Counted from the stretch's first letter, positions 9,487 through 63,880 are shown. The stretch is 64,000 nucleotides of DNA from an uncultured Poribacteria bacterium (GCA_951813565.1 OX638351.1:4096001-4160000), one strand, 5' to 3'. Notes: generated from the sequence alone by a model not told the origin. Translations and numbers: made by a program.

Positions 9487-9700
9487 TAGGCGTCAATTTA
9501 GGGATTTATTTCAGGTTTCACACATTTTAACCCAAACAACACCGCAACCCGATTGTAGGGGCGGGTCTCTGTGCCCGCCCATTGTCTAAATACATCAGAT
9601 ATGGCGGGGCACAGAGACCCCGCCAAATGCCAAAAAGCGCATTTGGCGTTGATTTGGCCCTACAATGTGTGACGGGATTTGCCCACTAAATTGACGCCTA
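9487..9700. mobile_element. MITE with 15-bp TIR, flanked by a 23-bp direct repeat; carries a REP doublet
   Basis: TAGGCGTCAATTTAG / CTAAATTGACGCCTA; direct repeat TGGGTAGAGCGCATCAAAACCCA at 9464-9486 and 9701-9723. Confidence 0.85.
9622..9656 (-). mobile_element. 35-nt CAAATCAAC-hairpin micro-insertion
   Basis: Reverse strand CAAATCAAC GCCAAATGC GCTTTTTG GCATTTGGC inside GTAGGGC^GGGGTCTC; empty equivalent near 47251-47270. Confidence 0.85.
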
Positions 9701-9851
9701 TGGGTAGAGCGCATCAAAACCCAACATAATATAAATAGTCTCGTTTGTAAGAGGCACAATGAATTGCGCGACTACAAACGCCGATTTTCACTCCCGAAAC
9801 GTGAAACGTGGTGGACGGAAACCCACGGCGTGTGCCTACTACTGTGCAGAA

Positions 9852-11228
9852 TCACTTTGCCAAATCTTTCGCTTTTTGGAACTTCTGTTTAGCGAATTGT
9901 CCCCACTCTTTGATCTTCTCGTTGCGATAGATAGGGTCTTTCCAGTCAGCAGCTGCAACTTTCATCGCTTCCTCTTCAGAAATCGGCATCTCCACCAGCG
10001 CTGCAATTGCCGCATCACGTTTCTCAGCATCTGGACATTCTCGGATTGCTTTCCACGCATCAACAAGGTCTATATGCGAATCAATAATAAGTATACCAAA
10101 GAGGTCATTAACAATATCCCACCGTGCGCTGCCTTTATCAGCATCATAAGGAAACGGAGATAATTCTAAAGTAAACGGGTTCGTCACAACACATCGATCC
10201 CCTAATTCGTCATAGAGCGTAGGCAGCACGCTGGCTCGGTTCAATCCACCTTTCCATTTAGGTCCTTCATTATCACTATCGCGCAGCATCCACAGTTTTT
10301 GCGCCTGTTCAGACAAAACGAACTCAACAAACTTTTTCGCTATCTCCATGTTCGGCGCACCTTTCAGAATTGCGATTGAATCTGGATTGACAACAGTACC
10401 ATCCGTTGGCAAAACATATTTGATTTTTTCAGAACCTAATGCAGCGATTTGGCTATAAGCATAAAAATCAATCGCTAACCCGTAAATCACTTGCCCTGCA
10501 CCAACGTCTCTTGGAATAACGTTGGACCCAGCAGAAAACTTCTTCACATTTCCACCCAATTTCGTCAGGAGTGCAAATCCTTTCTCCCATCCGTGTGTTT
10601 GGAGGATTATTTCATACATCATGTGTGCACTACCACTTTCTCTTGGGTCGGCAGCACCAATTTGATTGATTAAAGCGATGTCTCCCAAATCCTCCCATTT
10701 TGTGGCTTTCGGTAAATTTTTCATCTCACGCAGCTGATCATTGTACATAATACCGAAACTTGATAACGCCGCACCATACCACCGATGTTTAGAATCGTAG
10801 ACAGGAATCCCATGATACGATTGTGGAATCTGTTTCAGTTGCGCATCAGGAAGTTTGTATGAAGTTAACAACCCCATCTCAGAAAGGCGGAGATAACTGT
10901 CCGTTCCACCGCCAAAGAAAATATCAATGCCGATACCCTCTGGTACCCGCTTAAACTCAGATTCAATAAACCGATAGTTGGACGAAGTACCACCAACATC
11001 TCGCCAATCAGTTTTGACGGGTCTACCTGTCTGTGCCTCATACCATTTTTCAAAATTGCTGCCGAATTCTGTCTCAATACTTTCTGGATGTGGTGATATA
11101 ATGATAAGTTGATCTTGTGTCTGGTCCGGTGACTTGCATTGCCAAAATACCATTACGCAGAGCAGTATCCCTAACGTTGCGATATGGGTAACCTTCAAAG
11201 TTTGCCGTAACGGATTTAAATAGGACAT
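9852..11228 (-). CDS. ABC transporter substrate-binding lipoprotein (Fe3+/AfuA-like family)
   Basis: Lipobox-like FWQC; IIISPH, DIFFGGG, ADPRESGS, AILKGAPN motifs. Confidence 0.85.
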   Translation of the reverse strand: MSYLNPLRQTLKVTHIATLGILLCVMVFWQCKSPDQTQDQLIIISPHPESIETEFGSNFEKWYEAQTGRPVKTDWRDVGGTSSNYRFIESEFKRVPEGIGIDIFFGGGTDSYLRLSEMGLLTSYKLPDAQLKQIPQSYHGIPVYDSKHRWYGAALSSFGIMYNDQLREMKNLPKATKWEDLGDIALINQIGAADPRESGSAHMMYEIILQTHGWEKGFALLTKLGGNVKKFSAGSNVIPRDVGAGQVIYGLAIDFYAYSQIAALGSEKIKYVLPTDGTVVNPDSIAILKGAPNMEIAKKFVEFVLSEQAQKLWMLRDSDNEGPKWKGGLNRASVLPTLYDELGDRCVVTNPFTLELSPFPYDADKGSARWDIVNDLFGILIIDSHIDLVDAWKAIRECPDAEKRDAAIAALVEMPISEEEAMKVAAADWKDPIYRNEKIKEWGQFAKQKFQKAKDLAK

Positions 11229-11698
11229 AGTTGTGATTTCTCCTCTGAAAATTTAAGTTTTGTTACAAATCATTCGTGGTCGCGACTGAAAACCGAAACC
11301 GATAAATTTATCAGACTCTGAACAGCGAAATAATATCCTGCATTTTCCACGCTAAAATCAGGATTCCCGCGAGCAGAATTATGTACCACACAATCATCGC
11401 TTTTACTTGTTTTTTCTTGAAGAACGAACGCGGTGGTCTGTTCTGTTTCATTAGTTTGCTCCTTATACCTATCCGTCGAAACGGATTGCAACTCCTACAT
11501 AGATGCGACAATAATAGCATATCTTATCCAGAAGCGTCAAGCCAAATCCCAGAGTCGGGCAGGGTTATTTAGTTTTCTATATTTCCGACGATTTTTATCA
11601 TACACGTTAATGCTTATAATAGTATCGTCCGTTGGGTAGAGCTTGCGAAACCCATAGGCATCAATTTAGTGGGCAAATCCCGTCAAACCTTGTAGGGC

Positions 11699-11732
11699 CA
11701 AATCAACGCCAAATGCGCGTGTGGCATTTGTC
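11699..11732 (+). mobile_element. 34-nt CAAATCAAC-hairpin micro-insertion at a junction of two REP types
   Basis: TGTAGGGC[CAAATCAACGCCAAATGCGCGTGTGGCATTTGTC]GGGACTAA. Confidence 0.8.
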
Positions 11733-12030
11733 GGGACTAAAGAGCGTGTCCGCAACGTTTTCTATAAACATATCGTCCCTACGGGACTAAGGAAAATACC
11801 GAATTTATTTTTTAATCTTCATTTAGTTTGCGTCTCATAAGGCACAAACTGAAAGTTTGTGCTACAACTTCTATTGTCCATTATCTTTCCAAGACAAGTT
11901 TAGCAAAGTGTCCCAATAATTTCAAAGTTCACTATAAATAGCCCTGCCACTATAAAACTTTTCTGTTGTCATTTTTTTAGAGATATGGTATTGTAAAAGA
12001 TAAGATTTTGACCACACTAAAGAGGACAAC

Positions 12031-15124: not shown

Positions 15125-15132
15125 GAGAAAAA

Positions 15133-26078: not shown

Positions 26079-26322
26079 AATTAATTGAGGGATGTGCATA
26101 AATAATTCCCATGTTAAAGTATGTGTTTAAAGGTAGTCCGCACACGCCGTGGGTTTCCGTCCACAAGTTCAAAGAGGCGCAGCATGCCACACGCGCATGC
26201 TGCGTTGATTTGGCAATGAATTGCGCGACTACAAACGGCATTTCTATAAATCAAGCGGCACCTGGCGTCTGTCCCTGTCTGTGTTGATCCGCCAAATATT
26301 TATGCACACTCCTCAATTAATT
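26079..26322. mobile_element. MITE-like element with about 26-bp imperfect TIR containing REP pieces
   Basis: AATTAATTGAGGGATGTGCATAAATA / TATTTATGCACACTCCTCAATTAATT. Confidence 0.65.
26179..26212 (-). mobile_element. 34-nt CAAATCAAC-hairpin micro-insertion
   Basis: Reverse strand CAAATCAAC GCAGCATGC GCGTGTG GCATGCTGC in GAGGC^GCAATGAATTGCGCGACTAC; near-identical empty arm at about 9751-9775. Confidence 0.85.
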
Positions 26323-26341
26323 AGACATTATTGATCTGTGC

Positions 26342-26372
26342 ATCAACGCAGCATGCGCTTTTGGCATGCTGC
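26342..26372 (+). mobile_element. Micro-insertion with truncated leader, at the left arm of a REP doublet
   Basis: ATCAAC GCAGCATGC GCTTTTG GCATGCTGC followed by GGGAGTGATCTCCGA..TCGGAGATCACTCCTAC. Confidence 0.7.
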
Positions 26373-26453
26373 GGGAGTGATCTCCGATTCCCGACTATCA
26401 AAGCGGTTAGTCGCGATTCGGAGATCACTCCTACAGAATTAGTATCTCATTAA

Positions 26454-26841: not shown

Positions 26842-26879
26842 TATTAAGAGGGATAATGAATTGCGCGACTACAAACGCG

Positions 26880-27995: not shown

Positions 27996-28672
27996 TCAGT
28001 ATGAGTCTTCAGTTGTCCCCAAGTCATTGCCAACTTGGATACCGGATCGACAGCTTGTGGCATACCAAACAAACCGTCCGGGTCAAAATTCTTTGGTGGT
28101 TCAATAGTGCTGACCCAAACGCGATTGATCCAAATCGGTCCTTTACCGTTCGAAGAAAATCTGAAATCCGAACCATTCGCACGATTCTCAAAACGACCAT
28201 CTTTGATTATCCAAATATGAACGCGCCATTTATCTGTTCCTTCAGGTTTTAAAACAGGAAAAGCACCATCTCCTGCACCACGGAACGCACCGCCAACGGG
28301 ACCAGCACCATTGCTGTCATATTGGCAATTAATCTGTTCCGCCTTGTTGGAGTCAAAATATTCCATGACAATCCAGGCTTTATGGTTTCCGCCGAATAGA
28401 AATGAATCGTCAATTTTGAAATACATGTGGTTGTGTCCTGGTCCATTATAGGGCCAAGGGTTTTCCAAACAGTCCACTTTATCCTGCACAGCAGGTTCTG
28501 TGATTCCATCTCCTTGTTCACTTTGGGTTAGTAATACACCTTCGCTTTCCTCACCAAGGTCTACCCAAATGAAGTTTTCACCTTCAACCGGTTCTTCCGC
28601 AGCAAATGCACCAAGTGAAATCAGAAAGCATTGAATCAAAAGAATTACTGTCAATTGAATACAACGGGACAT
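27992..28672 (-). CDS. Secreted protein with C-terminal AVDPxxKLAxTWGxLK motif
   Basis: Signal peptide; ends AVDPVSKLAMTWGQLK; AGGAGG upstream. Confidence 0.75.
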   Translation of the reverse strand: MSRCIQLTVILLIQCFLISLGAFAAEEPVEGENFIWVDLGEESEGVLLTQSEQGDGITEPAVQDKVDCLENPWPYNGPGHNHMYFKIDDSFLFGGNHKAWIVMEYFDSNKAEQINCQYDSNGAGPVGGAFRGAGDGAFPVLKPEGTDKWRVHIWIIKDGRFENRANGSDFRFSSNGKGPIWINRVWVSTIEPPKNFDPDGLFGMPQAVDPVSKLAMTWGQLKTHTE

Positions 28673-28699
28673 TTTTTTCCTCCTTATAATTGTGAGTTT

Positions 28700-29018
28700 T
28701 AGTGAAACCTACAATAGTCGTTTGGCGGGAATCCGGAACATCATAAGTGGAAAGCACACCACTGATTAGCGGGAAACCGACGAGTTTTCCATCTGTGTTC
28801 TTAGTATTACCAGCGTAATGCCCATAGTCATTGGTTCCTTTTACTTCCAGAAACTCAATACCAGGCACATTTATCGTCTCATAGATATAATGTGAGGTGT
28901 GTGTTTCGGCAATAGTGATAGGGATGGGTGGTAGATCAACTTGTGCTGCGGCGTGCCACGAAAAACAGATAATTAGACTTATGAACAAGGGAAGTTTCGT
29001 TTTTATGTGGTGACTCAT
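28700..29018 (-). pseudogene. Truncated paralog of the 29390-32068 secreted protein
   Basis: YETINVPGIEFL..YAGNTKNTDGKLVGF..STYDVP matches FETIDVPGVDFL..YAGYTKSTDG..TTYDFP, then homology stops. Confidence 0.65.
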
Positions 29019-29079: not shown

Positions 29080-29368
29080 TAACTGTCAATTTAAGCACAT
29101 AATTACCGGATTATCTCTTGTGGGAGGGCTTTGAAAGCCCGACTTTGTGAGATTCAAACAGGTAAATCCAAATCAACGCTGAATACGTGTTTGGTATTCA
29201 GCGGGTGTCACAGCGTTGATTTAAAGGTAGCAGGTATACTCCGTCCGCCGTCCGCTCACATATTTTTGGAAAATATACGGCACACGGCGTGTGCCTACTA
29301 CTTTGCATGTGTATTATCAAGGTTGAAAACTCTCTCACAAGAAAGATTACACGTTAAATTGACACCTG
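29080..29368. mobile_element. MITE (TGTCAATTTAA ends) containing nested REPs and a micro-insertion at 29169-29202
   Basis: TAACTGTCAATTTAAG..TTAAATTGACACC; internal TCTTGTGGGAGGG..CTCTCACAAGA; CAAATCAAC GCTGAATAC GTGTTTG GTATTCAGC. Confidence 0.7.
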
Positions 29369-47107: not shown

Positions 47108-47285
47108 TATCTCATAAATTGTTAAATACGGTTCCTTACACAGGATCTACATTCATCGTAGGGGCGGGTCCCCGGTGAATGCCAAAAGGCATTCGGACCG
47201 TTGATTTGGTGCCCGCCCATTGTTTACACTTATGAGAGAGATGGCGAGGCACAGAGACCTCGCCCTACAAATGATTTATGAGATA
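47108..47285. mobile_element. MITE-like element (TATCTCATAAAT TIR) with REP doublet and 35-nt micro-insertion at 47174-47208
   Basis: TATCTCATAAAT / ATTTATGAGATA; reverse-strand CAAATCAACGGTCCGAATGCCTTTTGGCATTCACC in GGGCAC^GGGGACCC. Confidence 0.7.
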
Positions 47286-47337
47286 CGCTCTAATGCTTTG
47301 GCTGCTTGATTTTGGTTTTTGTCAGTGTGATAAGAGT

Positions 47338-48237: not shown

Positions 48238-48251
48238 TTTTATGCAGCGAT

Positions 48252-50427: not shown

Positions 50428-50511
50428 TCCATATCCTCCAATCCAATATTGTATGTTCAGGACAATTATATCACAGTTCTAATTTAAATGAAATAGATTC
50501 CAAATCAAGGT

Positions 50512-50718
50512 AGGGTTATTCAGTTTTCGAAATTTTTTTTACAAGTGTTTATTTTTTATGAAAAGCAGATATAGCGTGTTTTTTTACAACATATCTGCTA
50601 TAGTTCACCTTAAAACGACCTATTTTGAGGTGAATAATGACAAGAAGAAAATCTTGCCACTTAATAGAAACTCGCAGTTAACCTTATAAAATGAAAATTT
50701 ATAAAACTGAATAACCCT
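50512..50718. mobile_element. MITE with perfect 16-bp TIR
   Basis: AGGGTTATTCAGTTTT / AAAACTGAATAACCCT. Confidence 0.75.
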
Positions 50719-50800
50719 GATACCAAAACAACTTGACACTTTCCTGCTTTGCATGGTATTTTTTAACATTCTAAACCTATTTTTTAGGCGAGGTGAAATC

Positions 50801-52549: not shown

Positions 52550-52586
52550 TATTTTGTACAGTTTGTCTATAAAGGATTTGATTATT

Positions 52587-53447
52587 ATGCAAGAAGTACG
52601 TAATTCTAATGATCCAATACCGTTGTCTCCAGGAGAGAAGTTGATGACTCCAGAACAGAAGTTTTTCTTTGACTTACGGGGTTGGCTTCTGCTACCATCG
52701 GTATTGTCAGAGTCGGAAATCGAAGAGATGAAAGCGGAAGTGTATGCAGGTGCAAGGCAGAGTTATCAAGGTGCTTTACAGAATTTACTTGACCATCCGG
52801 CAATTGTAGGTATTCTAAGCGAAATCCTTGCTGATGAACGATTTATCTTTGACGATTGCTACGGCTTTCGGTGTGAGAATTCGATTACGACGGTCAGAAA
52901 ACCCGGCTGGAGCACTTCTTCTAATAGTGGTACTGCGGTGCCGCATGTCGTACGACCTCCACAACAAGCAAATGCGATGCGGTATCAGGTGGCAGGTGGA
53001 AAGATATTCGCAGGACTCACACGTGTGATTTGGGAACTTGAGGAGGTGAAAGCTGGACAGGGAGGGACTACTTTTCTGAGTGGGTCTCATAAGGCACATT
53101 TCAACTACGGTGGACCGGACCCAAACCGCCCGAATATTAGTGAATCTCCTTGGGAAAATAAAATAAAGGATATGATGGAGGATTATAGTTGTCCCCCTGG
53201 GTCAGTACTTATTTTCACTGAAAGCCTTATCCATGCTACCAACAACTGGACGAACCCTGACAATCCGCGTTGTGCTGTGTTTAATTGTTACAACTCAATA
53301 TGGGCGCAATGGTTTCGGTTGAATCTAAGTCATGAAATTATTGAAACGATGCCGCCGAAACGGCAATCTTTATTCCGTGGAACTTGGGCAATAGGTGGGG
53401 GTCCTGGCGGAAACCGTCAGTATTCGTTGGATAATACTACCAAATAA
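52587..53447 (+). CDS. PhyH-like Fe(II)/2OG oxygenase
   Basis: FFFDLRGW, GGTTFLSGSHK, GSVLIFTESLIH, NPRCA. Confidence 0.8.
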   Translation: MQEVRNSNDPIPLSPGEKLMTPEQKFFFDLRGWLLLPSVLSESEIEEMKAEVYAGARQSYQGALQNLLDHPAIVGILSEILADERFIFDDCYGFRCENSITTVRKPGWSTSSNSGTAVPHVVRPPQQANAMRYQVAGGKIFAGLTRVIWELEEVKAGQGGTTFLSGSHKAHFNYGGPDPNRPNISESPWENKIKDMMEDYSCPPGSVLIFTESLIHATNNWTNPDNPRCAVFNCYNSIWAQWFRLNLSHEIIETMPPKRQSLFRGTWAIGGGPGGNRQYSLDNTTK

Positions 53448-53471
53448 TTTTAAAACTATAAGGAGATATTA

Positions 53472-54311
53472 ATGTCAAAAGAAACGTTAAACGGTGAACC
53501 AAAACCAATGACTCCAGAACAGAAGTTTTTCTTTGATCTTCGCGGTTGGATTTTATTACCATCAATATTATCGGACTCAGAAATCGAAGAGATGAAAGCG
53601 GAAGTATATGCGGGCGCAAGGCAAAGTTATCAGGGTTCACTGCAGAACCTCCTTGATCATCCTGCAATTGTAGGTGTTCTAAATGAAATTCTGTCCGAAG
53701 ATCCGTTTGTACACGATGATTGCTACGGATTTCGATGTGAAGGGTCTTTTACCACAGTCCGTGAATCTGGTTGGAGTGTAACATCACGTGGTGACAACGG
53801 CTTACCACACGTTGTGCGACCACCGCAACAAGCAAATGCGATGCGGTATCAGGTTGCTGGTGAAAAGATATTCGCTGGACTTACTCGTGTCGTATGGGAA
53901 CTTGAGGAGGTAAAGGCCGGACAAGGCGGCACCTCTTTTCTGAGTGGATCGCATAAAGCGCATTTCAACTATGGAGGCCCCGACCCTTATCGTCCGAATA
54001 TCGGCGAGTCGCCTTGGGAGAATAGCATGCGGGATATGATGGACGACTATAGCTGCCTACCGGGTTCTGTCGTCATTTTCACTGAAAGTCTTGTGCATGC
54101 GGCAAACGACTGGACGAATCCGTCAAATCCGCGCTGTGCTGTCTTTAATTGTTACAACTCTATCTGGGCACAGTGGCATCGGTTGAATCTGAGCCATGAA
54201 ATCATTGAAACGATGCCGCCGAGACGACAATCATTATTCCGCGGGACGTGGGCAATTGGCGGTGGTCCTGGTGGGAATCGTGAGTATTCACTGGAAAATA
54301 ATACTACGTGA
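53472..54311 (+). CDS. PhyH-like Fe(II)/2OG oxygenase (tandem paralog)
   Basis: Highly similar to the preceding protein over its full length; AAGGAG upstream. Confidence 0.8.
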   Translation: MSKETLNGEPKPMTPEQKFFFDLRGWILLPSILSDSEIEEMKAEVYAGARQSYQGSLQNLLDHPAIVGVLNEILSEDPFVHDDCYGFRCEGSFTTVRESGWSVTSRGDNGLPHVVRPPQQANAMRYQVAGEKIFAGLTRVVWELEEVKAGQGGTSFLSGSHKAHFNYGGPDPYRPNIGESPWENSMRDMMDDYSCLPGSVVIFTESLVHAANDWTNPSNPRCAVFNCYNSIWAQWHRLNLSHEIIETMPPRRQSLFRGTWAIGGGPGGNREYSLENNTT

Positions 54312-54319
54312 TAATAAGC

Positions 54320-54347
54320 GTATGCGGGATTGTCTAATCCCGCATAC
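54320..54347 (+). terminator. Stem-loop after the PhyH pair
   Basis: GTATGCGGGATT-GTCT-AATCCCGCATAC; no U-tract. Confidence 0.5.
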
Positions 54348-54782
54348 AGACACACATGTGAAAACTATTCTAAAGCTACTGATAATACGATTCACTTGAT
54401 TCACAGAATTTCCCGATCACATGCGTCTCCACTGTCAATGACAAATAAACCTATCAAACAACCCATCTCGTCTTAAATAACCCGCCTTATCCTTTATCAA
54501 CACGAATCATCTCTATAATTTCATACGTATGCTGTATTTTGCTTTCCATATCCTCGCTGGAAACTGCTAATATCACAATATTAATGTGTGAATTTAGAAG
54601 GCGTTTCATAATTTTGAAATCCAACACGAAATTTATGGATAGAATTACGAATTAATTTTGATTTATACGTCTTTAATTTACATATTTCTGAAGAAGTATT
54701 GTATAATTTAGTGTGAATTTTACCTGAATTATGTAAAATTTAAGATTAAACCTGATTTTTTAGATAGAATCTAATATTTAGT

Positions 54783-54811
54783 TTGACATTATTAAAAATA
54801 TATAGTATACT
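54783..54811 (+). promoter_or_regulatory. Near-consensus sigma70 promoter
   Basis: TTGACA-N17-TATACT followed by AAGGAGG and ATG at 54844. Confidence 0.75.
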
Positions 54812-54843
54812 TTACGTATTACCTATTAAGTAAGGAGGGAAAA

Positions 54844-55326
54844 ATGAATTCGGTGAAGGAAAAATTGGAAAAGTGGTTGAAGGAGAATCCTGAAGGTTGG
54901 CTAACAGAATCTGACCAATCCATTTCGGATCAGGCAGGAGTCTCGACAGGATCGGTAAGTAGACATTTGCATATGGTTGTTGCAAAGCGGAATGGTGTTA
55001 TGCCATCTGAGGTTAGAAAGCAGAGACAAGAGACTAGACCTATTTCGCGTAGAACAAAAGTGGATTTGAATAAAATTCGTGAAATCATTGCAGCGAATCC
55101 TGATATGCCTGTTTGTGATCTGGCATTCATGGCTGATTGCTCTGAGGCAACAATTGAGCGATTATTGAAGGCAATTGGTCATGGCACTGATGAGAGTCAA
55201 GAAGATGATGATGATGATGACCAAAACTCCAATTCTAAGATCATATCGATTCGTTCAGATCTGGAAAACATCAAAGTGGGAATGGAGACAGTTTTAACAC
55301 GTTTAGATGAACTATTAAACGATTAA
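54844..55326 (+). CDS. Hypothetical DNA-binding protein with two HTH-like motifs
   Basis: SDQSISDQAGVSTGSVSRH and PVCDLAFMADCSEATIER; acidic linker; C-terminal coiled coil. Confidence 0.65.
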   Translation: MNSVKEKLEKWLKENPEGWLTESDQSISDQAGVSTGSVSRHLHMVVAKRNGVMPSEVRKQRQETRPISRRTKVDLNKIREIIAANPDMPVCDLAFMADCSEATIERLLKAIGHGTDESQEDDDDDDQNSNSKIISIRSDLENIKVGMETVLTRLDELLND

Positions 55327-55382
55327 ACGGTGTTTATTAAAACATATCGTTTTTATTTGAGTTGTTTGTCTAAGGCAAAAGC

Positions 55383-55417
55383 TTGAAACCTCGGATCGCC
55401 ATAATCCGAGGTTTCAA
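55383..55417 (+). terminator. Stem-loop downstream of the HTH gene
   Basis: TTGAAACCTCGGAT..ATCCGAGGTTTCAA, 14-bp stem. Confidence 0.55.
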
Positions 55418-55797
55418 AAGACTACCTGCTGTGGAAACGAGAGTTTCCATCATATATTCAACATTTCTGTTTTAATTACAGAAATGTTGAAAAGAAAACG
55501 GTGAATTGTGTGATTGGTCAACAAGATAAACCATCAAAAACTTTATCTTGAATTGAACCATTTTCTTTTAAAATTATCCAACAGGTGCTATTAATTGTGT
55601 CATATCAAATGAAAATTGTCAAGCAAAACAAAAATATTTCTAAAATTCAGTAAAACAAATGTGTTTTTGAATTTGATTGCACTTATGATGTACTTTATGC
55701 TTTTTTGTGTTACTTGCATTTAATTGGCACAATAACGGTGTTGAGTTAACGCAACTCTTCTGTTGGGTATTAAACATACCTCAATGGAGGATTCGAC

Positions 55798-56022
55798 ATG
55801 GGAAATAAGAAATACCCATCTCGGCAAGTTAGAAGGGCAGCTAAACGTAAGGCGGAGAAATATCAATCAAAAAAAAATAGTCGGAAAACTCGTAAGTCAG
55901 AAAAGTCTGGCAACATGCAGTTCAAGGATAATTTGAAGTTTGTAATTTGTATTATCGTTCGTCTTATAAGTCCGCACCTGAAGGACATTTTCGAAAAGCT
56001 CAAAGAAATATTTTTAATCTAA
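55798..56022 (+). CDS. Small basic hypothetical protein
   Basis: GGAGG upstream; Arg/Lys-rich N-terminus, hydrophobic C-terminus. Confidence 0.5.
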   Translation: MGNKKYPSRQVRRAAKRKAEKYQSKKNSRKTRKSEKSGNMQFKDNLKFVICIIVRLISPHLKDIFEKLKEIFLI

Positions 56023-56191
56023 GACTTCAAAATGCCAGAGTGTCTGGCTCTGGCAACCCAACATAGACATACCATAGTGGTAGAGGTCACGGTTGGCTGT
56101 CCCTAGCTTTTCCGGAGAAAAGCACCGTCCTTATGGCACGTATTCGGGCAAAGGAATAATTATAAAGTGTGCGTTACCTGCTGCTATACCT

Positions 56192-56428
56192 TCAATCTGC
56201 GACTTTATCTTCGGATGATTCAAGGGATATAGGCTTCTCTGCAGGCGGTTCTGGATCAACAAACTTATACTTACCTGTTTTCCGCAATCTTTTCCCTACC
56301 TCTTGGTAATGAGCGAGTAATCGATAAAGATCATGCCCACATTCTTCTGAAATTTTCATACGCATTTCACGAACTTCCTTAACGACTTCATTCATTTCTG
56401 GGCGTAAAAGATCCTCGCGCGTTACCAT
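56192..56428 (-). CDS. Small hypothetical protein
   Basis: GGAGG upstream; 78 aa helical (EVREMRMKISEECGHDL). Confidence 0.6.
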   Translation of the reverse strand: MVTREDLLRPEMNEVVKEVREMRMKISEECGHDLYRLLAHYQEVGKRLRKTGKYKFVDPEPPAEKPISLESSEDKVAD

Positions 56429-56488
56429 TTATGCAGTGCCTCCTAAAATATTATACCATGCAAAGATCCAATTGTCAAAACAAGATAT

Positions 56489-58540
56489 TCATGAATTTGA
56501 TACCATTTGAGGAGCTAACACCAGCGCGCTTCGGGCAGGAACATAAAGTTGAATAGACTGTGTATGCCCTTCTGTCGCTACGTCTTGCCACGGATAATGA
56601 ACCCCTTCTACAGCACCGTAACCGCCAAATTCAGTGTCGTCCGTGTTGAGAATGAGACGGTAATCTGCTTTTTCAGGCACAGGGATACGCCAATCCGTGA
56701 CAGATGCTGTCGGATGGAAGTTAAAGGCAAACACAAGTCCTCCGCGCGTGTATACAATTTGTTTTGCGTCCTCGTGAATCAATAGAAGCTGAATGTTTTC
56801 ATCAGTGAGAATATGATACGTTGTATCAAGATGTTGCATGGATCGGTCAAAATCGTTTAGATGCCGATAATAGAGCGTCCCATCATCTACGAGGTGCCAC
56901 TGCCTGCGCGCATACCAATAAGAATTGTTGTTTCCTGCCCGGGGAAAATCAATCCACTCAGGATGTCCAAACTCATTGCCCATAAAGTTGAGATACCCTT
57001 CACCACCTAAACTAAACGTGAGCAGGCGAATCAACTTGTGTAAAGCAACACCGCGAGCAATCCTTAAGCTTGGCGTGCAAACACTCATTTTTGTGTAGAG
57101 TTCGGCATCCATCAGTTGCATCGCAAGTGTTTTGTCACCGACAATGCTTTGGTCGTGGCTTTCGACGTAAGCAATGTGTTTTTCACCTGCGCGGCGGTTG
57201 CGCAACATGCCGTAAATTTCTCCGATGCGCCAATTCTCGTCCTTTTTCTCTTTCAACAACCGAATCCAATAGTCTGGAATGCCCATGGCAAGGCGATAAT
57301 CAAAACCAAATCCGCCTTCTTCAATAGGACGTGCAAGACCGGGCATTCCGCTCATATCCTCAGCAATAGAAATCGCGTTTGGGTTGACAGCATGGATAAC
57401 TTCATTTGCTAACATCAGGTAAGCGATGGAATCTAACTCCACTTTAGGGCTAAAGTAATCATCGTAACCTGTGAACTCCTGACCAAGACCATGGTCACTG
57501 TAGAGCATACTCGTAACACCATCAAATCTAAAGCCGTCAAAACGATAAGTTTCCAGCCAAAATCGGATATTGCTCAGTAAAAACCGCTGCACCTCGTATT
57601 TGCTGTAATCGAAACAACGAGAGTCCCAGGCGATGTGTTCGCCTTTTTCACCTGCATGAAAATAGTGATACTCCGTGCCATCAAAGCGGTTCAACCCTTC
57701 ATTGATGTTTTTCACAGCATGGCTATGCACCAAATCCATAATCACCAGCAATCCCATTTCGTGTGCAGTGTCTATGAGTTCCTTAAGTTCTTCAGGTGTT
57801 CCAAAACGACTTGATACTGCGAAAAAGTTGCTTACATGATACCCGAAACTTGCATAATAGGGATGCTCCATTATTGCCATCAGTTGCACTGCGTTGTAAC
57901 CTAAATTGGCAATTCGGAGCAACACGTTTTGCGTAAACTCTGCAAACGTTCCGACTTTTTCTCCTTCTTGCGCCATGCCGACATGTGCTTCGTAGATGCG
58001 CAACCCCTGTTTGTGTGCGTTAAAATTTGGTGCTTGATTCTTCCATTGATACGAATCCGACGGCGACCAATATTGTCCTGTGAATTCAGTTTCGCTTTCC
58101 TGAATGACGCGCTGAATATAGGCGGGAATTCTATCAAGTGCCCCCAGTTCTGATTTGACATGCACTTTTACTCGGCTACCGTGTGTGAACCGATCTGCAT
58201 AATCTTTATCCGACAAAAAAAGATGCCATATTCCCCATTCATCAATAGACATTGGGTTGGCATCACGATTCCAGTCGTTAAAATCGCCTATAAGGGAGAG
58301 GGACTGTGCGCCCGGTGCCCACTCGCGGTACCAAACACCGCTTTCACCTGCATTTTCGCCTCGGTTGAAACCGAAATAACGATGCCCTTGGCTAATCTTG
58401 CCTAATATACTACCAGTTTTTTCAATCTGGGCTTTGAAACGTTGATAGTGCGCGAACCTTTCGCGTAATTGAGGGGCATAAGGCTTTAACAAAGGATCGC
58501 GTTTGATGAGGCGTGTGCCATCAGCTTTGTGTTTCTCCAT
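56489..58540 (-). CDS. glgB: 1,4-alpha-glucan branching enzyme (GH13_8-like)
   Basis: YREWAP, IYEAHVG, YASFGYHV, DGFRFDGVTS, AEDMSG, ESHDQ, NFMGNEFGHPEWIDFPR. Confidence 0.93.
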   Translation of the reverse strand: MEKHKADGTRLIKRDPLLKPYAPQLRERFAHYQRFKAQIEKTGSILGKISQGHRYFGFNRGENAGESGVWYREWAPGAQSLSLIGDFNDWNRDANPMSIDEWGIWHLFLSDKDYADRFTHGSRVKVHVKSELGALDRIPAYIQRVIQESETEFTGQYWSPSDSYQWKNQAPNFNAHKQGLRIYEAHVGMAQEGEKVGTFAEFTQNVLLRIANLGYNAVQLMAIMEHPYYASFGYHVSNFFAVSSRFGTPEELKELIDTAHEMGLLVIMDLVHSHAVKNINEGLNRFDGTEYHYFHAGEKGEHIAWDSRCFDYSKYEVQRFLLSNIRFWLETYRFDGFRFDGVTSMLYSDHGLGQEFTGYDDYFSPKVELDSIAYLMLANEVIHAVNPNAISIAEDMSGMPGLARPIEEGGFGFDYRLAMGIPDYWIRLLKEKKDENWRIGEIYGMLRNRRAGEKHIAYVESHDQSIVGDKTLAMQLMDAELYTKMSVCTPSLRIARGVALHKLIRLLTFSLGGEGYLNFMGNEFGHPEWIDFPRAGNNNSYWYARRQWHLVDDGTLYYRHLNDFDRSMQHLDTTYHILTDENIQLLLIHEDAKQIVYTRGGLVFAFNFHPTASVTDWRIPVPEKADYRLILNTDDTEFGGYGAVEGVHYPWQDVATEGHTQSIQLYVPARSALVLAPQMVSNS

Positions 58541-58889
58541 AATGTATCAGTTTAACACAAGATGGTTGGCGATTCAAGTATGATGTCTGCTAAGCACGCC
58601 TATAGGCAGATGTTCACCTATTTTTTTTCTAATATAATTCGGTTTGTTTAACATAAAATACACGTTAATATCAAATATTGAGTTATTTTGAAAATTAATT
58701 TGACTAATTTAGTCAGGTCTAGTATATTTATAATCATGTGTTCGGTAGAAACAATTTTTGGGAATTGGTCCGATGAATCAACGCCAAGTGCCATAAGACA
58801 CTTGGCGGGAAACCGAACTTATCGTGGTCGTAAGAGTAGAATTCAAAGCATAGAGAGCTTCATATCTCTTACACCGAACTGACGTTGTA

Positions 58890-59390
58890 TCAGTTTTCAA
58901 CACCTGATTCATTCCATTGTGCGTGGCGCTGAAGGGTACGGATATCAATCCCTAACGATTCAGCTGCTTCACGTAAGGATGTAAACTTCTCAATACGCAT
59001 CTGCGCAACAGCGCGTAGAATTTGATTTTGATTCATTTTTCCTATGTTAAGTGCTTCCGCTTCTTCTGCAGTTTTTGCATTGACGGAATTTCTCACGCTA
59101 TACCACGGTTGCGGTGTTTGCGTGGAGAGTTCATGCATAATTATATGCTGCGTCTCTGGATGGAGTGCTTCCCATATCGCGTGCTGCGTATCAGAGGCAA
59201 GTGTTCCCCATATAGAGATTAGAGTCTGTAAGAACTCAGGATATATATTTGGAAAATCTTTTGGTTCAAGAGTATCAGTAGTGGCGAGCGCAATAGCAGT
59301 TTGAATAGTACTTCTGAGCTGCCGAATATTGCCGGGCCACGCAGCTTGTTCAAGACGAGTGAGTGCCTCTGGACTAATGCCTTTAACGCT
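58890..59390 (-). pseudogene. C-terminal remnant of a sigma54-dependent activator (NtrC/Fis family)
   Basis: Reads GISPEALTRLEQAAWPGNIRQLRSTI into a Fis-like HTH (SLREAAESLGIDIRTLQR); no start and no AAA+ core. Confidence 0.75.
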
Positions 59391-59395
59391 CCCCC

Positions 59396-59803
59396 GTCAA
59401 ATCCCCATGCTTTAGCTTGTGGGATGTCCACGGCTAACAATGTGATGGACAGCACGAAATGTCCAGCGAAAGCGGAATAAAACCCATCGCTATAACGAAA
59501 TCTATAAAGTTGGTGGATAGCGTCCATATCAAGCCACTGCAGCACTGCAGCACTGCAGACTGGAATGCGTGAGCGGAGGCAACCCCTCCCGAAGTCTAAG
59601 GACTTGTCGCGTGGCGTGCCTGGTAGAAAGGGCAGCTATAAAATGGGTGGAAACAGAGCCAACCCACGACATTGCGAAAAATAAATCAAACGGGCAGGCT
59701 TGGCTGCCTAAAGTGGAGCGACACTAAGACGGTGGACGCTAAGCGAAAACCGCAGTCGCGAGGAAGCACAAGCCCCTACCTTTAGGTAGTGGGTACCTAT
59801 GAC
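59396..59803 (+). mobile_element. Non-autonomous IS200/IS605-type element without ORF
   Basis: Left hairpin GTCAAATCCCCATGCTTTAGCTTGTGGGA; right hairpin AAGCCCCTACCTTTAGGTAGTGGG..TGAC. Confidence 0.65.
59690..59803 (+). ncRNA. Candidate TnpB omega-RNA (reRNA) scaffold
   Basis: GCCT..GTGGAG..TAAGAC..GCA..GAAGCA.AAGCCCC-hairpin order resembles tnpB right ends as recalled; not model-scored. Confidence 0.5.
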
Positions 59804-59911
59804 TTATCTTTTGCTAATTCCTATAGTAGCTTATGTTTTTAACACATTGCGGTAACAGGTATTCCAAAATCTTAGCAATTGAAGCGTGAAATATTAGACC
59901 CGTAAAGAATT

Positions 59912-59927
59912 TGGCATGGAATTTGCT
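59912..59927 (+). promoter_or_regulatory. Putative sigma54 promoter with no obvious downstream CDS
   Basis: TGGCATGGAATTTGCT (GG-N10-GC). Confidence 0.45.
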
Positions 59928-60221
59928 TATTTTCTTAAGTTGCAATGTAACTCTTTCGCAAATATTTGGAGTGTTTAGTTAGACATAGGACTTTATGACA
60001 TAGGCACATACCAAGTGCCTTAATGCTGTAGGCGCGCCTGTCCCTCTCCCCTAAAGGTGCGCTTACAAAATCGCGATTTGGGTAGGCGCGCTAATCAAAT
60101 CGCGATTTATGGTGGTAGCGGTCTTCGGATCGCTACTGTCTTTTTTATAGTAGATTTTATACCATTTCCATGTGATTATATTGCATTGTGTCTTAGGTCA
60201 AGTTTCACTATGCCCTACCCA

Positions 60222-60465
60222 TAGGTGTCAACTTAAGAAAAAAATGATGGATTTTCTCTTGTGGGAGGGAAACTTTGTCCGCCCGATTTTGTGAGACTCA
60301 AACTGTTAAATCCAAATCAACGATGAATGCGCCTATGGCATTCATCCAAATCAACGCAGCATGCGCGTCCGACATGCTGCCAAATCAACGCTGAATGCGC
60401 GTGTAGGCATTCAGCGGGGTTGAAAACCCCTCCCACAAGAAGGTGTATCCTTAAGTTTACACCTA
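60222..60465. mobile_element. MITE (same end family as 9487-9700) with REP doublet and triple micro-insertion array
   Basis: TAGGTGTCAACTTAAG / CTTAAGTTTACACCTA. Confidence 0.75.
60313..60415 (+). repeat. Tandem array of three different CAAATCAAC-hairpin units
   Basis: Units 60313-60346, 60347-60380, 60381-60415. Confidence 0.9.
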
Positions 60466-60608
60466 TGGGTAGAGTGAAGCGAAACCCAATTCAACCGTCT
60501 TGACAGTCCTAAAGAGTTGGGTTTCACTTATTTTCAGAAATATAGACCTCAAATGGGTCAACAACCTCTCTTTAGGGTTTGTTTTTATTGTCCATTTCCG
60601 TTCTACTT

Positions 60609-60641
60609 CACCGAATGGCATAGGCGCATTCGGTGTTGATT
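60609..60641 (-). mobile_element. Degenerate micro-insertion
   Basis: Reverse strand AATCAAC ACCGAATGC GCCTATG CCATTCGGT. Confidence 0.55.
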
Positions 60642-60753
60642 CCCTACCGGATTTATCAAACTCACGTTACATTAACGACTTGTGCCAGTTAACATTTTGT
60701 TTTGTTGGTTTTCACATATATTTGCATTTGTGCTATAAACATATCGTCCCTAC

Positions 60754-60822
60754 CAAATCAACGCCAAATGCGCCAAATCAACGGTCCGAATGCCTTTTGG
60801 CATTCCCCGTATGGCATTTGGC
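60754..60822 (+). mobile_element. Micro-insertion with a second unit nested in its loop (60774-60808)
   Basis: CCCTAC[CAAATCAACGCCAAATGCGC[35 nt]GTATGGCATTTGGC]GGGACTAA. Confidence 0.9.
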
Positions 60823-60873
60823 GGGACTAAAGAGTGCTCGTCCAATCATTTTCTATAAACATATCGTCCCTAC

Positions 60874-60907
60874 CAAATCAACGCCAAATGCGCTTATGGC
60901 ATTTGTC
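60874..60907 (+). mobile_element. 34-nt micro-insertion
   Basis: CCCTAC[CAAATCAACGCCAAATGCGCTTATGGCATTTGTC]GGACT. Confidence 0.85.
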
Positions 60908-61055
60908 GGACTGAAGAACATATAAATATATGATAATGACTTACAAACATTTTCTTTTGTGAAATAAAGTTCTACATATGGTTATTTAGCACAACTCGTT
61001 ACACTAACAAACAACTGAGTAAAGAAAAACCTTTAACTTTCATCTTAAATTCCTC

Positions 61056-61826
61056 CTAAGGGTTTAAGCCTAAAAATTCATACACATCAAATCCACTTGA
61101 GTCGTAATCAAGGATACGAATCCCTGGCGTTTTCTCTCCTGCTCGAATTTTTGCTTGGGCTTCTGAAGACAAGACATTAGAATCTCCAACAAAACTGACT
61201 ATTTTAGATGTTCCGTTAGCTGTTTTCGTCTCTTTGGTCCGAACATATACCGTATTCGGTGTAACGACATATATTTTCTGAGTATGACGATCTAAACTAA
61301 GTTTAACATCAGTTTGCCCTTGTTTCCATAATTTAATACGGACGCGATCAAGCAACTCCCTTGGCCGAAGGGTATCATGATGACCCTCTCGGTCAAGATC
61401 GAAAGTCCAAAACGGCCGATACGCATCAGGATAATCCGATGGAATTTGAGGATAGGCACCAAACCCATAGTCTGACTCACCATAGGAAGCAATTCGCCAA
61501 TCATTGGGATCTGCTGCAAGTTTTGCCACGTCCTCAATATGTTCTAAGGGTACACCTTTCTCAGAAGATTCAAGTGGTGTTTCGGAAGTTTCGTTTGCAG
61601 GATCCAGTGGTTTTTCCTCTGGGGTTTCTGTGTTCTCTGCAACGGTTTGTTCCGTTGGTGTTTTACCATCTTTACTGGACGCATCCTTACGAACCTGACT
61701 AAAGTCTGGTACATTATAGACTTTTTTCTCAGCGGTAGGAGGCTTAGGTTTCAAGAGAATAAACCCACCAACGCCAATAACAACAATAAGTACCAGCAGC
61801 CAATGCCAATTTTTGCGCCAATACAT
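61056..61826 (-). CDS. N-terminally membrane-anchored hypothetical protein
   Basis: One TM helix, low-complexity linker, YGFGAYPQIPSDYP domain; GGAGG upstream. Confidence 0.75.
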   Translation of the reverse strand: MYWRKNWHWLLVLIVVIGVGGFILLKPKPPTAEKKVYNVPDFSQVRKDASSKDGKTPTEQTVAENTETPEEKPLDPANETSETPLESSEKGVPLEHIEDVAKLAADPNDWRIASYGESDYGFGAYPQIPSDYPDAYRPFWTFDLDREGHHDTLRPRELLDRVRIKLWKQGQTDVKLSLDRHTQKIYVVTPNTVYVRTKETKTANGTSKIVSFVGDSNVLSSEAQAKIRAGEKTPGIRILDYDSSGFDVYEFLGLNP

Positions 61827-62230
61827 TGTTTCACCTCCCGTAGGTTGTGACTTCCTTGTCAGGGAAGTCAGTTGTAAATAAATAACGCACTACAACGTCA
61901 GTCGTTTAGGCACTTTGAATGTGAGTTAGCGTTCACTATCATGAGGTCTATTGACTTCACCGGTATGCTTACAGATAAAATATAGATTAAATAGCGAACA
62001 ATGTTAATTTTTTGCTAAAAATGCACAAAACATCAAGATATTTTACAATATCTGTCTATGATTGTACACACACACACACAATTTTTGTCAACTGTTTTTT
62101 AATTATTGTAGAGATATTTAGTTTTTGCTCACTTTAGTGAGAAATTGTAACCGGGGATCGCTTTTAAGGTGAAGAAATCTTGAGCAGACAGTAAAACTAA
62201 CGGAGAATTGAACGGGTCTGACAAAAGGAG

Positions 62231-62260
62231 TTGACAAACATCTATATCTTTAGGTAGAAT
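62231..62260 (+). promoter_or_regulatory. Putative sigma70 promoter
   Basis: TTGACA-N18-TAGAAT, then AAGGAG and ATG at 62300. Confidence 0.6.
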
Positions 62261-62299
62261 TACAATAATAAGTTAATACTTCTGCAAAAGGAGACAAAA

Positions 62300-62665
62300 A
62301 TGGCAGACGAAAATGGTAATAACGAACTTGCTGAAAATACAGATCATAACGCTTCAGGAAGCGGATTTATTGTAAACGTCAATCAGCTGCAATCCATGGA
62401 TATTCCGCTGCGATTTAACCGCGTCAAAACAGATAATGGTTGGATTATCAATGTGCAGGAAGCAGGAAGAGTAACAGTAAACTTTTTAACCAGTATGAGA
62501 AAATTGGAGACTGCATTGGTCGCGGGTGATAGCATTGAGCGGGATGGTGACGACCTTATAATCATGCGAAGCCAGCCAGCCGATGCATATCGCTCACAGC
62601 GAGGCACTTCCCCGTTAACGCTTAGTCGTGAGGAGTTGTTGTCAACTACCCCATCAGCGAAGTAA
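62300..62665 (+). CDS. Hypothetical protein
   Basis: 121 aa ORF with promoter and Shine-Dalgarno. Confidence 0.7.
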   Translation: MADENGNNELAENTDHNASGSGFIVNVNQLQSMDIPLRFNRVKTDNGWIINVQEAGRVTVNFLTSMRKLETALVAGDSIERDGDDLIIMRSQPADAYRSQRGTSPLTLSREELLSTTPSAK

Positions 62666-62891
62666 GACAGAATTCTAAATAGTGTAAATGGATTTAGTTA
62701 TATTTTAAGCGTAGATTTAGTAAAGCATATAATTACTTGCACACTTTCATAATAGCGCTCTGACCAGTAATGTTGACTGCACCTAATAACAACGGGTCGC
62801 GAGCTGGAGCTCGCTCCTACAGGAAGAGGTAGGGCGGATAAAGCACCTACTAACAGATGTCTACATAATTGTATATTTCACTATATTTACG

Positions 62892-63037
62892 CAAGTTGCT
62901 ACTTACAAAATTTTGAACAAAAAGACGATGTTTTTCCTAAAAAACAAGGGTTTTTCGTTGATTCTGGATGTCTTTTGTTATAAATCGGGGTTAGAAACCC
63001 CTCCTACAAGAGAATTTACGAAATCGGTAGCAACTTG
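62892..63037. mobile_element. MITE-like element (CAAGTTGCTAC TIR) with a REP arm
   Basis: CAAGTTGCTAC / GTAGCAACTTG; internal AAATCGGGGTTAGAAACCCCTCCTAC. Confidence 0.55.
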
Positions 63038-63164
63038 GGTTATATTTCAGAAAGATTTACTTAACCGAACTATTTTTATAAGCCATATTAATTTTCGTAT
63101 TAGGAGGTACCAGACCATTTTAGAACGTATCTACAGACTTATTTCAAGTTTAAAAGGTGGAACA

Positions 63165-63635
63165 ATGGTGCCGACAGCTGTAGTGCTGAGTCCCGATAGT
63201 TACGCGGAAGTTGTTGCTGAACTATTTGAAACATCCGAATCGGAAGGTGATGAAGCACAGGGACTTGAGCATCAACTGGGATTACCTCCTATTTCAGTTC
63301 GGTCAGATGATACGGATATTGTCGTTGTAAAGGAATTGGTGCCGAACCCGTGTCCAATTTGCCATCATCCGCTTAAGTTTCTCCGAGAATTGATTGAACG
63401 GTTTGAGAAGGAAGAAACCAATTTGATTAGGTGTCCGCTTGGACACCGCTATTCCGGGATGATGAAGGTTTACCATTTGAACATTTTTCAGCAATCGGAA
63501 AACTCCGAAACGGTGAAAAAAGTTACTGAATGCCCAGCATGTGGCGGTAAAAAAATCCAGTACTTAGGTCCAGCGGAGATGTTTTGTTTAGATTGTGACT
63601 GGGATAGTGGTATGGTTGCTCGGTATAAAATGTAG
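63165..63635 (+). CDS. Hypothetical double zinc-ribbon protein
   Basis: CPIC, CPLGH, CPAC, CLDC; start at ATG 63165 after AAGGTGG. Confidence 0.65.
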   Translation: MVPTAVVLSPDSYAEVVAELFETSESEGDEAQGLEHQLGLPPISVRSDDTDIVVVKELVPNPCPICHHPLKFLRELIERFEKEETNLIRCPLGHRYSGMMKVYHLNIFQQSENSETVKKVTECPACGGKKIQYLGPAEMFCLDCDWDSGMVARYKM

Positions 63636-63747
63636 TATTTTCTGGATTTACGCAAATTTCGGCAGAATAGGTGTTTATAGTGAAATCCATAATTTTTTGG
63701 ACATTCTGTTCTTATGCAGATTCAAACATACCATAAATATCCGAGGC

Positions 63748-63880
63748 GACAAGTCATGGCGAATACCACACGCGTATTCGCCCAAGTGCGCTTGGCGTTG
63801 ATTTGGCAATGAATTGCGCTTGGTGAATGCGCCAAATCAACGGTCCGAATGCCTTTTGGCATTCCCCGTATGGCATTCAC
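63748..63880. mobile_element. Cluster of nested micro-insertions in both orientations
   Basis: Minus-strand unit 63748-63805 with inner hairpin 63758-63782; plus-strand unit 63833-63867 nested in GTGAATGCGC^GTATGGCATTCAC. Confidence 0.75.

Follow-up and report, generated by a model that had tools for sequence, protein, structure and literature searches.

Insertion sequences of the IS200/IS605 family and the REP/RAYT systems, in which repetitive extragenic palindromic (REP) elements occur with REP-associated tyrosine transposases (RAYTs), need a hairpin and a short unpaired motif; they act in a strand-specific manner and produce no target duplication. Integron attC sites are 57-141 nt long, possess paired R''/R' boxes, lie between cassettes and occur with an integron integrase. 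Smaller hairpin repeats are reportedly present in Nostoc punctiforme and its relatives: Elhai et al. in 2008 are said to have described small dispersed repeats (SDR1-8) of 21-27 nt. To our knowledge, the mechanism of the Nostoc repeats is still open. We analysed a 64,000-nucleotide stretch of DNA (the window) from an uncultured Poribacteria bacterium (GCA_951813565.1, OX638351.1:4096001-4160000), whose genome is a single contig of 5,426,982 bp with 43% G+C. The window contains 34-36-nt units, each made of a short leader and a hairpin. We propose, with a probability of about 0.55, that these units are genus-specific, very small, non-autonomous and structure-dependent mobile DNA, which probably moves as single-stranded DNA.

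In behaviour, the units appear to be closest to the Nostoc SDRs, as far as these are reported. Both are shorter than 40 nt, dispersed, non-coding and without a known enzyme. Both form hairpins that are supported by compensatory changes, both nest in each other, and both are found inside short tandem repeats (for the units, at G000:134073 and at loci L076, L093 and L107). In contrast, the units occur in Poribacteria and not in cyanobacteria, are 34-36 nt long with a 7-9-nt unpaired leader whereas SDRs are reportedly 21-27 nt, and prefer GTAG-tagged REPs as hosts and C^G as the target (^ marks the point of insertion); the two are likened by description, not by sequence. The units also share with the IS200/IS605 family (IS608 and ISDra2, as generally understood) the dependence on a hairpin, the lack of target duplication and oriented insertion beside a short sequence. 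As in IS608, where it is the guide, a short unpaired segment lies 5' of the hairpin foot. However, a unit possesses one hairpin whereas the insertion sequences possess two subterminal ones, the target of the units appears to be only C^G (often C^GGG) instead of a fixed tetra- or pentanucleotide, and the ends of the resident autonomous element do not match the unit. Compared with attC sites, the units are shorter (34-36 nt), mostly lack a 3' complement of the leader and do not lie between cassette open reading frames (ORFs); an integron integrase was not searched for.

GTAG- and CGTC-tagged REP families are described by Di Nocera 2013 (PMC3733652), and REP elements and REPINs with RAYT transposases by Bertels & Rainey 2011 (PMC3116915). 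Like REPs, the units are intergenic palindromes in the 20-40-nt range with an unpaired motif at one end. Both kinds of repeat are numerous and lineage-specific, and in both the stems differ between subfamilies while pairing is kept. CGTC-tagged REPs, too, lack a dedicated transposase according to Di Nocera 2013. However, the units carry neither a GTAG nor a CGTC tag (where GTAG tags occur in the window, they are those of host REPs), and the unit loop is 7-8 nt whereas that of CGTC-tagged REPs is 4-5 nt. Furthermore, the units form direct tandems and nests whereas REPINs are inverted dimers, and they parasitise REPs rather than flank a RAYT gene and show no phyletic link with RAYTs. The palindromic GC clusters of yeast mitochondria (PMC4478555) are reportedly likewise small, palindromic, non-coding and mobile-looking and multiply within one genome, but they reside in an organelle and differ in composition. 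The units are a variant of the tiny hairpin repeats that fails the defining features of both REPs and IS200/IS605 elements. Our literature searches turned up no account of repeats of REP type or smaller from Poribacteria.

Each unit is non-coding and consists of a single-stranded (unpaired) leader, [CA]AATCAAC, a 9-bp stem and a 7-8-nt loop that begins and ends with G. Nearly all copies agree in the four innermost stem pairs (ATGC/GCAT) and at the loop ends (GC...G). In contrast, the outer 4-5 bp vary, provided that pairing is kept, so that variation is mostly at pairs 2-5 and 8. Two types of unit were distinguished. In the window, the A-type stem starts with G, has 9 bp and follows the leader CAAATCAAC. 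In the B-type (bulged) unit, the leader is followed by GG-TCC/TAT-GAATGCC, a 4-nt loop and GGCATTC-C/A-CC. A first-pass annotation of the window had listed several units, and each A-type and bulged unit on its list was found in place with the arms as written; the bulged subtype, given as GGTCCGAATGCC-TTTT-GGCATTC[A/C]CC, is present at 47174-47208 (minus strand), 60774-60808 and 63833-63867. In addition, its list lacked the units at 11699, 58774, 60347, 60609 (minus strand) and 60874. We counted 14 matches to the 10-mer leader CAAATCAACG in the window, where 0.30 would be expected, and none of 100 shuffles reached 14. One of these matches, at 14005, is due to chance: it lies inside an ORF and has no hairpin. 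DNA folding of the units with perfect stems gave -7.4 to -10.5 kcal/mol (z -2.8 to -4.2), whereas two units with a C-T mismatch were weaker (z -1.0 and -1.8).

In the whole genome, we counted 550 exact leaders (294 on the plus strand and 256 on the minus strand). A peeling script yielded 393 complete units, that is, 244 A-type units (stem with at most one mismatch) and 149 B-type units, and 386 of the 393 are 34-36 nt long; a further 423 leader cores lie in compound forms outside this census. The loop length of 7-8 nt and the G at both loop ends, which had been read from the window, hold genome-wide for 237 and 227 of the 244 simple A-type units, respectively. The leader had been called fixed. 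This is correct for AATCAAC, which is invariant, but the two preceding bases differ by subfamily (n=525: CA, 321; TG, 100; CG, 37; GA, 33).

The central observation is that the stem arms vary and nevertheless stay paired, as the annotation had proposed. In the alignment of 10 window units, 95.6% of the cells are paired and six of the nine pairs have changed on both sides. The covariation score was not reached by any of 500 shuffles, and the paired fraction was 21-39% when the 3' partner was slid by 1-3 columns. Two larger alignments were fitted to the structure of a covariance model built from the same 10 units. With 55 distinct sequences from the window and 29 loci of the genome, 95.6% of the cells were paired and seven of nine pairs were two-sided (0/500 shuffles); with 56 distinct sequences from other species, the values were 96.7% and six of nine (0/500 shuffles). 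These shuffle counts are not probabilities because the copies share descent. Moreover, many copies have been multiplied as passengers of larger repeats, so the cell counts overstate the number of independent compensatory events. Among the 244 simple A-type units there are 34 arm combinations with 21 distinct 5' arms and 11 perfect 9-bp stems. Their paired fraction is 0.91, while 1000 random re-pairings of the arms gave a mean of 0.61 and a maximum of 0.72. Stems are imperfect in 103 of the 244 copies. The main defect is C-T at pair 2 (74 copies), and there is no excess of G-T among the mismatches (G-T in 5 and A-C in 9 distinct arm combinations). Inverted-repeat homogenisation, which had been named as the explanation that would undo the proposal, fits poorly, since 74 of the 244 copies retain the C-T at pair 2. 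The idea that structure and length, not stem sequence, are selected is partly supported: the outer 4-5 bp change by paired substitutions, and the length is fixed. A unit that acts as a single strand in folded form would be expected to keep both its fold and its length. Of the two intermediates that had been considered, single-stranded DNA or RNA, we disfavour RNA and infer a DNA route.

The units lie between genes. In a crude ORF set (at least 150 aa, covering 80% of the genome), 385 of 393 units are outside ORFs. Tandem, divergent and convergent spacers are occupied about in proportion to their length, and the direction of the unit relative to the flanking genes shows no preference (109 same, 134 opposite). 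A C directly precedes 347 of the 393 units, and a G directly follows 322; 62 of the other 71 are followed by the next tandem unit. T directly after the unit was found in none of the 393. There is no target duplication longer than 1 nt, and the constant flanks are only the C before and the G after, with GGG after 187 units. The same preference was observed for B-type units of other species (C before, 57/69; G after, 65/69) in at least 30 flank contexts, which include other REP families and tandem heptamer repeats.

The hosts of the units are foldable repeats, namely GTAG-tagged REPs (in the stem, the loop or the tag), the loops of sibling units and the 3' foot of sibling units. For example, the GTAG-tagged host REP1, GTAGTCGCGCAATTCATTGC^GCCTC, is empty in about 164 copies and filled in 89. 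A second GTAG-tagged host, REP2 (GTAGGG(C^G)GGGTC...GTGCCCGCC), is entered in the stem and in the loop. The hairpin GTCCC-TAC^GGGAC is empty near 11785 of the window and filled at 60754 and 60874. Units also enter the 5' foot of the hairpin GGGGTTGAAAACCCC and, at position 2/3, the loop of a sibling (ATGCGC^GTATGG). Sibling loops are entered only if they contain GCG; the commonest loop, GCTTTTTG (59 copies), is never entered. Empty and filled sites exist for all six host classes, and orientation relative to the host is nearly fixed in each of them (same/opposite: 141/4, 89/1, 28/1, 11/0, 47/1 and 87/5). Repeated placement gives tandem arrays and Russian-doll nests in the same orientation. Compound or B-type units were also seen inside tandem repeats of about 7-10 nt (CGCGGATTAT) at G000:C1:134040-134200 and at loci L076, L093 and L107, a setting reminiscent of the heptamers that are reported around cyanobacterial SDRs.

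Stepwise growth could be followed in one host family, in which 34 copies share the flanks on both sides of the REP1 site and carry inserts exactly there. Three copies are empty (0 nt). Two copies carry 34 nt, a single A unit, and one of these is the window unit at 26179. In 11 copies the insert is 69 nt, an A unit with a B unit in its loop. Six copies with 76-105 nt have in addition an 8-nt leader octamer and a second B hairpin, four copies with 129 nt have gained an inverted leaderless hairpin, and eight copies with 153 nt have one more leaderless hairpin. The leader-bearing steps are base-precise, with a duplication no longer than a single C. The leader octamer is doubled in 120 compound copies (CAAATCAA, GAAATCAA and CG in succession). 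The annotation had noted that the junctions do not fall at the cleavage and target motifs of IS608 and ISDra2. This is true of the outer junctions, but one junction lies directly after TCAA in the 120 compound copies. Some units are chimeric, the 5' arm of one unit being joined to the 3' arm of its neighbour (ATGAATGG...CATGCTGC). Rare full palindromes, which mirror the leader or even a doubled leader at the 3' side, were also observed (CAAATCAAGAAATCAACG...CGTTGATTTCTTGATTTG; G000:C1:782660 and G000:C1:134291).

Comparison between species was possible for whole spacers, since genes of the nearest species are 81-87% identical and their spacers do not align. The spacer that contains the 29169 unit (window 28711-29391) measures about 680 bp, whereas six other species have a repeat-free spacer of 67-159 bp at this place; in a seventh species, the orthologous spacer is 195 bp and holds a different set of nested units. 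The enlarged spacer also contains a 144-aa ORF (28584..29018, minus strand). We scored the genome, 24 relatives from the same genus and 16 genomes from three sister families with the covariance model. It gave more than 150 matches in the genome itself and matches in all 24 other species of the genus (3 to about 140 each, these counts being lower bounds), and none of the 16 sister-family genomes was matched. Within this sample, a single genus of Candidatus Poribacteria carries the unit. In species-representative genomes, the B-type pattern was found in at least 113 stretches; among the 80 listed, 79 are from Candidatus Poribacteria and one is from an 'uncultured bacterium'. Viral contigs gave no match to the B-type pattern and five matches to the A-type pattern, which have no hairpin and are due to chance. 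A phage or plasmid carrier was dropped as a candidate, because no unit was found on viral contigs.

If the units are mobile DNA, a unit would be recognised as a folded single DNA strand and copied or moved by a protein that acts in trans. We propose that only copies that still fold would be copied; the arms would then stay complementary, which would explain the compensatory changes. The mover would most likely be a nuclease-ligase of the HUH/Y1 type (IS200/IS605- or RAYT-like) or another structure-specific enzyme. HUH/Y1 enzymes of the IS200/IS605 and REP/RAYT systems are the nearest models; they, too, work with a hairpin and a short unpaired motif, are strand-specific and leave no target duplication. 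Given mobility, we allow the Y1-type enzyme perhaps an even chance. A more far-reaching proposal, which we regard as possible and rather doubtful, is that the units may be micro-mobile DNA of a new kind. They would then be the smallest site- and strand-specific bacterial insertion element, consisting of a 7-nt leader and a structure-only hairpin, homing to CpG steps in extruded hairpins and moved by an unrecognised structure-specific enzyme or by a HUH protein that is not co-inherited; such an element might be the Poribacteria counterpart of the cyanobacterial SDRs.

Candidate enzymes were sought in the genome. It contains 10 Y1_Tnp matches, namely five IS200/IS605 tnpA copies with tnpB, two solo Y1 genes (one broken) and three RAYT-like genes (one broken). 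The IS200/IS605 element at locus L002 (G000:C1:226940-230296), which has four more copies, encodes a 139-aa TnpA and a 370-aa TnpB-like ORF and is bounded by CCCCTnCCTTTAGGTAGnGG hairpins; no leader was found within 1.5 kb of the five tnpA copies. GTAG REPs flank both intact RAYT-like genes (loci L008 and L010), and a unit sits as an insert in the upstream REP of each. Any Y1_Tnp was detected in 20 of the 24 genus genomes. Y1_Tnp is present in each of the six genomes that gave 125 or more unit matches, and the four genomes without it gave no more than 47; we give this trend little weight because the unit counts are lower bounds and the genomes are related.

Several observations weigh against a mobile element that moves as single-stranded DNA. 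The end hairpins of the L002 element (CCCCTGCCTTTAGGTAGGGG) are unrelated to the units. On this ground and for the lack of leaders near tnpA, the resident IS200/IS605 element was set aside as a candidate source of the enzyme, and the caution that the motif likeness to IS608 and ISDra2 may be coincidence was justified. RAYT-like genes are present in 16 of 24 genus genomes and also in all three unit-free sister families, the solo Y1 type is present in 12 of 24 and in two sister families, and no Y1_Tnp was detected in two genomes that gave 40 and 47 unit matches, one of which is assembled as a single contig. Across the 40 relatives, the presence of RAYT-like genes, of solo Y1 genes or of Y1_Tnp overall does not track the units, so that the phyletic pattern points to none of them as the mover. 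Not all junctions are clean. The leaderless steps of the growth series add a net 24 nt and replace 4-5 host bases, and at REP loops and the GTAG tag the unit plus G takes the place of one host A. These unclean junctions fit template switching as well as transposition. Copy numbers are inflated by units that ride along when host repeats multiply. No filled/empty polymorphism at a unique locus was found in the contigs of public runs, which break at repeats: on 44001-64000, the contigs of three DNA runs end at every repeat cluster, and their many joints come from repeated sequence. At single-copy depth, runs X4, X8 and X9 contain a 37-nt skip (63829 to 63867) over the nested 63833 unit, but this skip may stem from another copy of the host hairpin, because its sides are only 23 nt long and lie in repeated sequence.

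We weighed this reading against rival explanations. That the units are simply another REP family, used as the substrate of a resident RAYT and showing the usual covariation of REP stems, is unlikely in our view. The size and hairpin are REP-like, GTAG-tagged REPs are close hosts, a unit lies in or beside the upstream REP of both intact RAYT-like genes, and the REP stems of this genome co-vary too; the uniform presence of Y1_Tnp in the unit-rich genomes adds weakly to this, with the limits stated above. However, by the family definitions in PMC3733652, the units have no GTAG or CGTC tag but the unpaired end [CA]AATCAAC. Direct tandems and nested units take the place of inverted REPIN pairs, the units at the RAYT genes are inserts in GTAG REPs and not the flanking repeat itself, and the phyletic patterns of unit and RAYT disagree. 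Alternatively, no dedicated enzyme may be involved: the GAATGC/GCATTC core is common to the hairpins, so that replication might slip or switch template from one to another and spread the units in this way, and templated repair within a hairpin, not selection, might make the arms complementary again. As an account of all the units this is also improbable, and we take it as a serious rival, above all for the leaderless hairpins. The inner stem common to all subtypes, the chimeric units, the imprecise leaderless steps and the doubled leader octamer are consistent with template switching, as is the finding that no gene among those profiled (RAYT-like, solo Y1 and Y1_Tnp) correlates with the units. 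In contrast, leader-bearing units are inserted base-precisely in many unrelated hosts with at most 1 nt shared, orientation is fixed at the six host classes, the leader has no partner that could template it, and the 74 copies with C-T at pair 2 argue that homogenisation is inefficient.

Two other readings are less probable still. The stems might be selected on a transcript, as in a terminator, an mRNA stabiliser or a small RNA. We consider this very unlikely, although the stems co-vary, the units are intergenic and REP-type repeats elsewhere are thought to be active in RNA, according to PMC3733652. The units show no direction preference relative to genes and occupy divergent, convergent and tandem spacers about by their length, there is no T-run after the hairpin in the window units, and G-U pairs are not in excess among the mismatches. 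A search of the whole window with Rfam 15 gave no match at the gathering score, and nesting in the loop of a sibling would disturb the function of an RNA. One RNA run (X11, a polyA library, as contigs) covered parts of 59237-60673 at depth 3-6 and is uninformative on the units. Least probable of all is that the units are double-stranded binding sites of a dimeric protein, either operators or recombinase sites of the attC/dif type. It is true that they are palindromic and that the leader ends with AAC and its complement starts with GTT, which we take to be loosely similar to the integron R-box. However, a dimer that reads sequence would not tolerate arms that vary freely as long as they pair, and in most units the leader has no complementary copy at the 3' side. 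Moreover, a 35-nt unit is far shorter than attC and does not lie between cassettes, and the hundreds of copies have no link to promoters.

If the units are mobile, these 35-nt sequences would be among the smallest site-specific insertion elements known, and a leader plus a bare hairpin would be enough for hundreds of genomic copies. Because the insertions can be counted in one host family (0, 34, 69, ... 153 nt), the rules of hairpin-targeted insertion may be readable from them. The mechanism of the cyanobacterial repeats could then be worked out in another lineage as well, independent of the first; if the units are indeed the counterpart of SDRs, they would point to a general way of inserting DNA from hairpin to hairpin that has been overlooked. 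In practical terms, the units account for intergenic breaks in short-read assemblies of Poribacteria, and they might be used as strain markers in sponge microbiomes.

Table 1. Units and related hairpins in the window (positions counted from the first nucleotide of the window; bits, covariance-model score).
Feature	Position	Strand	Description
GTAG-tagged REP hairpin	9556..9580	+	GTAGGGGCGGGTCTCTGTGCCCGCC; empty, its partner REP holds the 9622 unit
A-type unit	9622..9656	-	Leader CAAATCAAC, stem GCCAAATGC/GCATTTGGC, loop GCTTTTTG; 54.8 bits; DNA fold -9.3 kcal/mol, z -2.96; at GTAGGGC^GGGGTC, within the second REP of an inverted REP pair
A-type unit	11699..11732	+	Stem GCCAAATGC/GCATTTGTC, C-T mismatch at pair 2; 55.4 bits; at GTAGGGC^GGGACT; empty CCCTAC^GGGACT site about 11780 to 11795
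A-type unit	26179..26212	-	Stem GCAGCATGC/GCATGCTGC; 57.8 bits; in REP1 (GTAGTCGCGCAATTCATTGC^GCCTC)
A-type unit	about 26340..26375	+	Degenerate leader GCATCAACG, stem GCAGCATGC/GCATGCTGC; 47.8 bits
A-type unit	29169..29202	+	Stem GCTGAATAC/GTATTCAGC; at TAAATC^GGGTGT; z -4.23
B-type unit	47174..47208	-	In the loop of a GTAG-tagged REP; z -3.65
Variant unit	58774..58808	+	Leader TGAATCAAC, stem GCCAAGTG/CACTTGGC; 23.9 bits, E about 9e-4
Three tandem A-type units	60313..60415	+	Between TAAATC and the hairpin GGGGTTGAAAACCCC; three different co-varying stems, GATGAATGC, GCAGCATGC and GCTGAATGC
First tandem A-type unit	60313-60346	+	Arms GATGAATGC/GCATTCATC
Third tandem A-type unit	60381-60415	+	Arms GCTGAATGC/GCATTCAGC
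A-type unit	60609..60643	-	Degenerate leader GGAATCAACA, stem CCGAATG; 46.1 bits
A-type unit, depth-2 nest	60754..60822	+	Stem GCCAAATGC/GCATTTGGC; B-type unit 60774-60808 in the loop at GCGC^GTATG; the fold of the 69-nt nested pair has one hairpin inside the other (-16.5 kcal/mol, z -3.56)
A-type unit	60874..60907	+	At CCCTAC^GG(G)ACT; 55 bits
A-type unit	63758..63805	-	Leader and CCAAGCGC stem; REP1 adjoins
Leaderless hairpin	63758-63782		GGCGAATAC/GTATTCGCC, in the loop of the 63758..63805 unit; 24.1 bits
Leaderless A-type hairpin	63820..63880	+	GGTGAATGC...GCATTCAC; B-type unit 63833-63867 nested in the loop at GCGC^GTATG

As shown in Table 1, some hairpins in the window have no leader. 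Leaderless hairpins, which measure about 25 nt and have ATG after them in every case, lie inverted in the loops of other units (G000:C1:917780-917940; window 63758-63805), and they may form a second class of unit that behaves differently. Beside the units at 26179 and about 26340, positions 26452-26843 are occupied by a repeat of about 390 bp, which has at least nine further copies in the genome at 92-97% identity. The GC skew of the whole genome in 200-kb bins changes sign many times, tracks the excess of genes on one strand and shows no two-replichore pattern. Because the skew is patchy and follows the gene strand, neither an origin and terminus nor replichores could be defined.

The genome also contains at least five REP families with GTAG or GTGG tags. 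At 9556-9668 of the window, two GTAG-tagged REPs form an inverted pair, a REPIN-like dimer, and the 9622 unit interrupts the second of them. The stems of the genome's REPs also co-vary, for example GGCGGGG.../...CCCCGCC and GGCGAGG.../...CCTCGCC. The RAYT-like gene of L010 is followed by about six tandem repeats of about 60 nt, each with the REP GTCGCGAGCTGGAG...CCTAC (G000:C1:242497-242900). A solo Y1 transposase-like gene at locus L006 (G000:C1:3097500-3098900) has palindromes of its own on both sides (AGCACCnnnGGTGCGAAAGGTGTATA), and the two together may be another system of the REP/RAYT kind, one whose repeat bears no tag.

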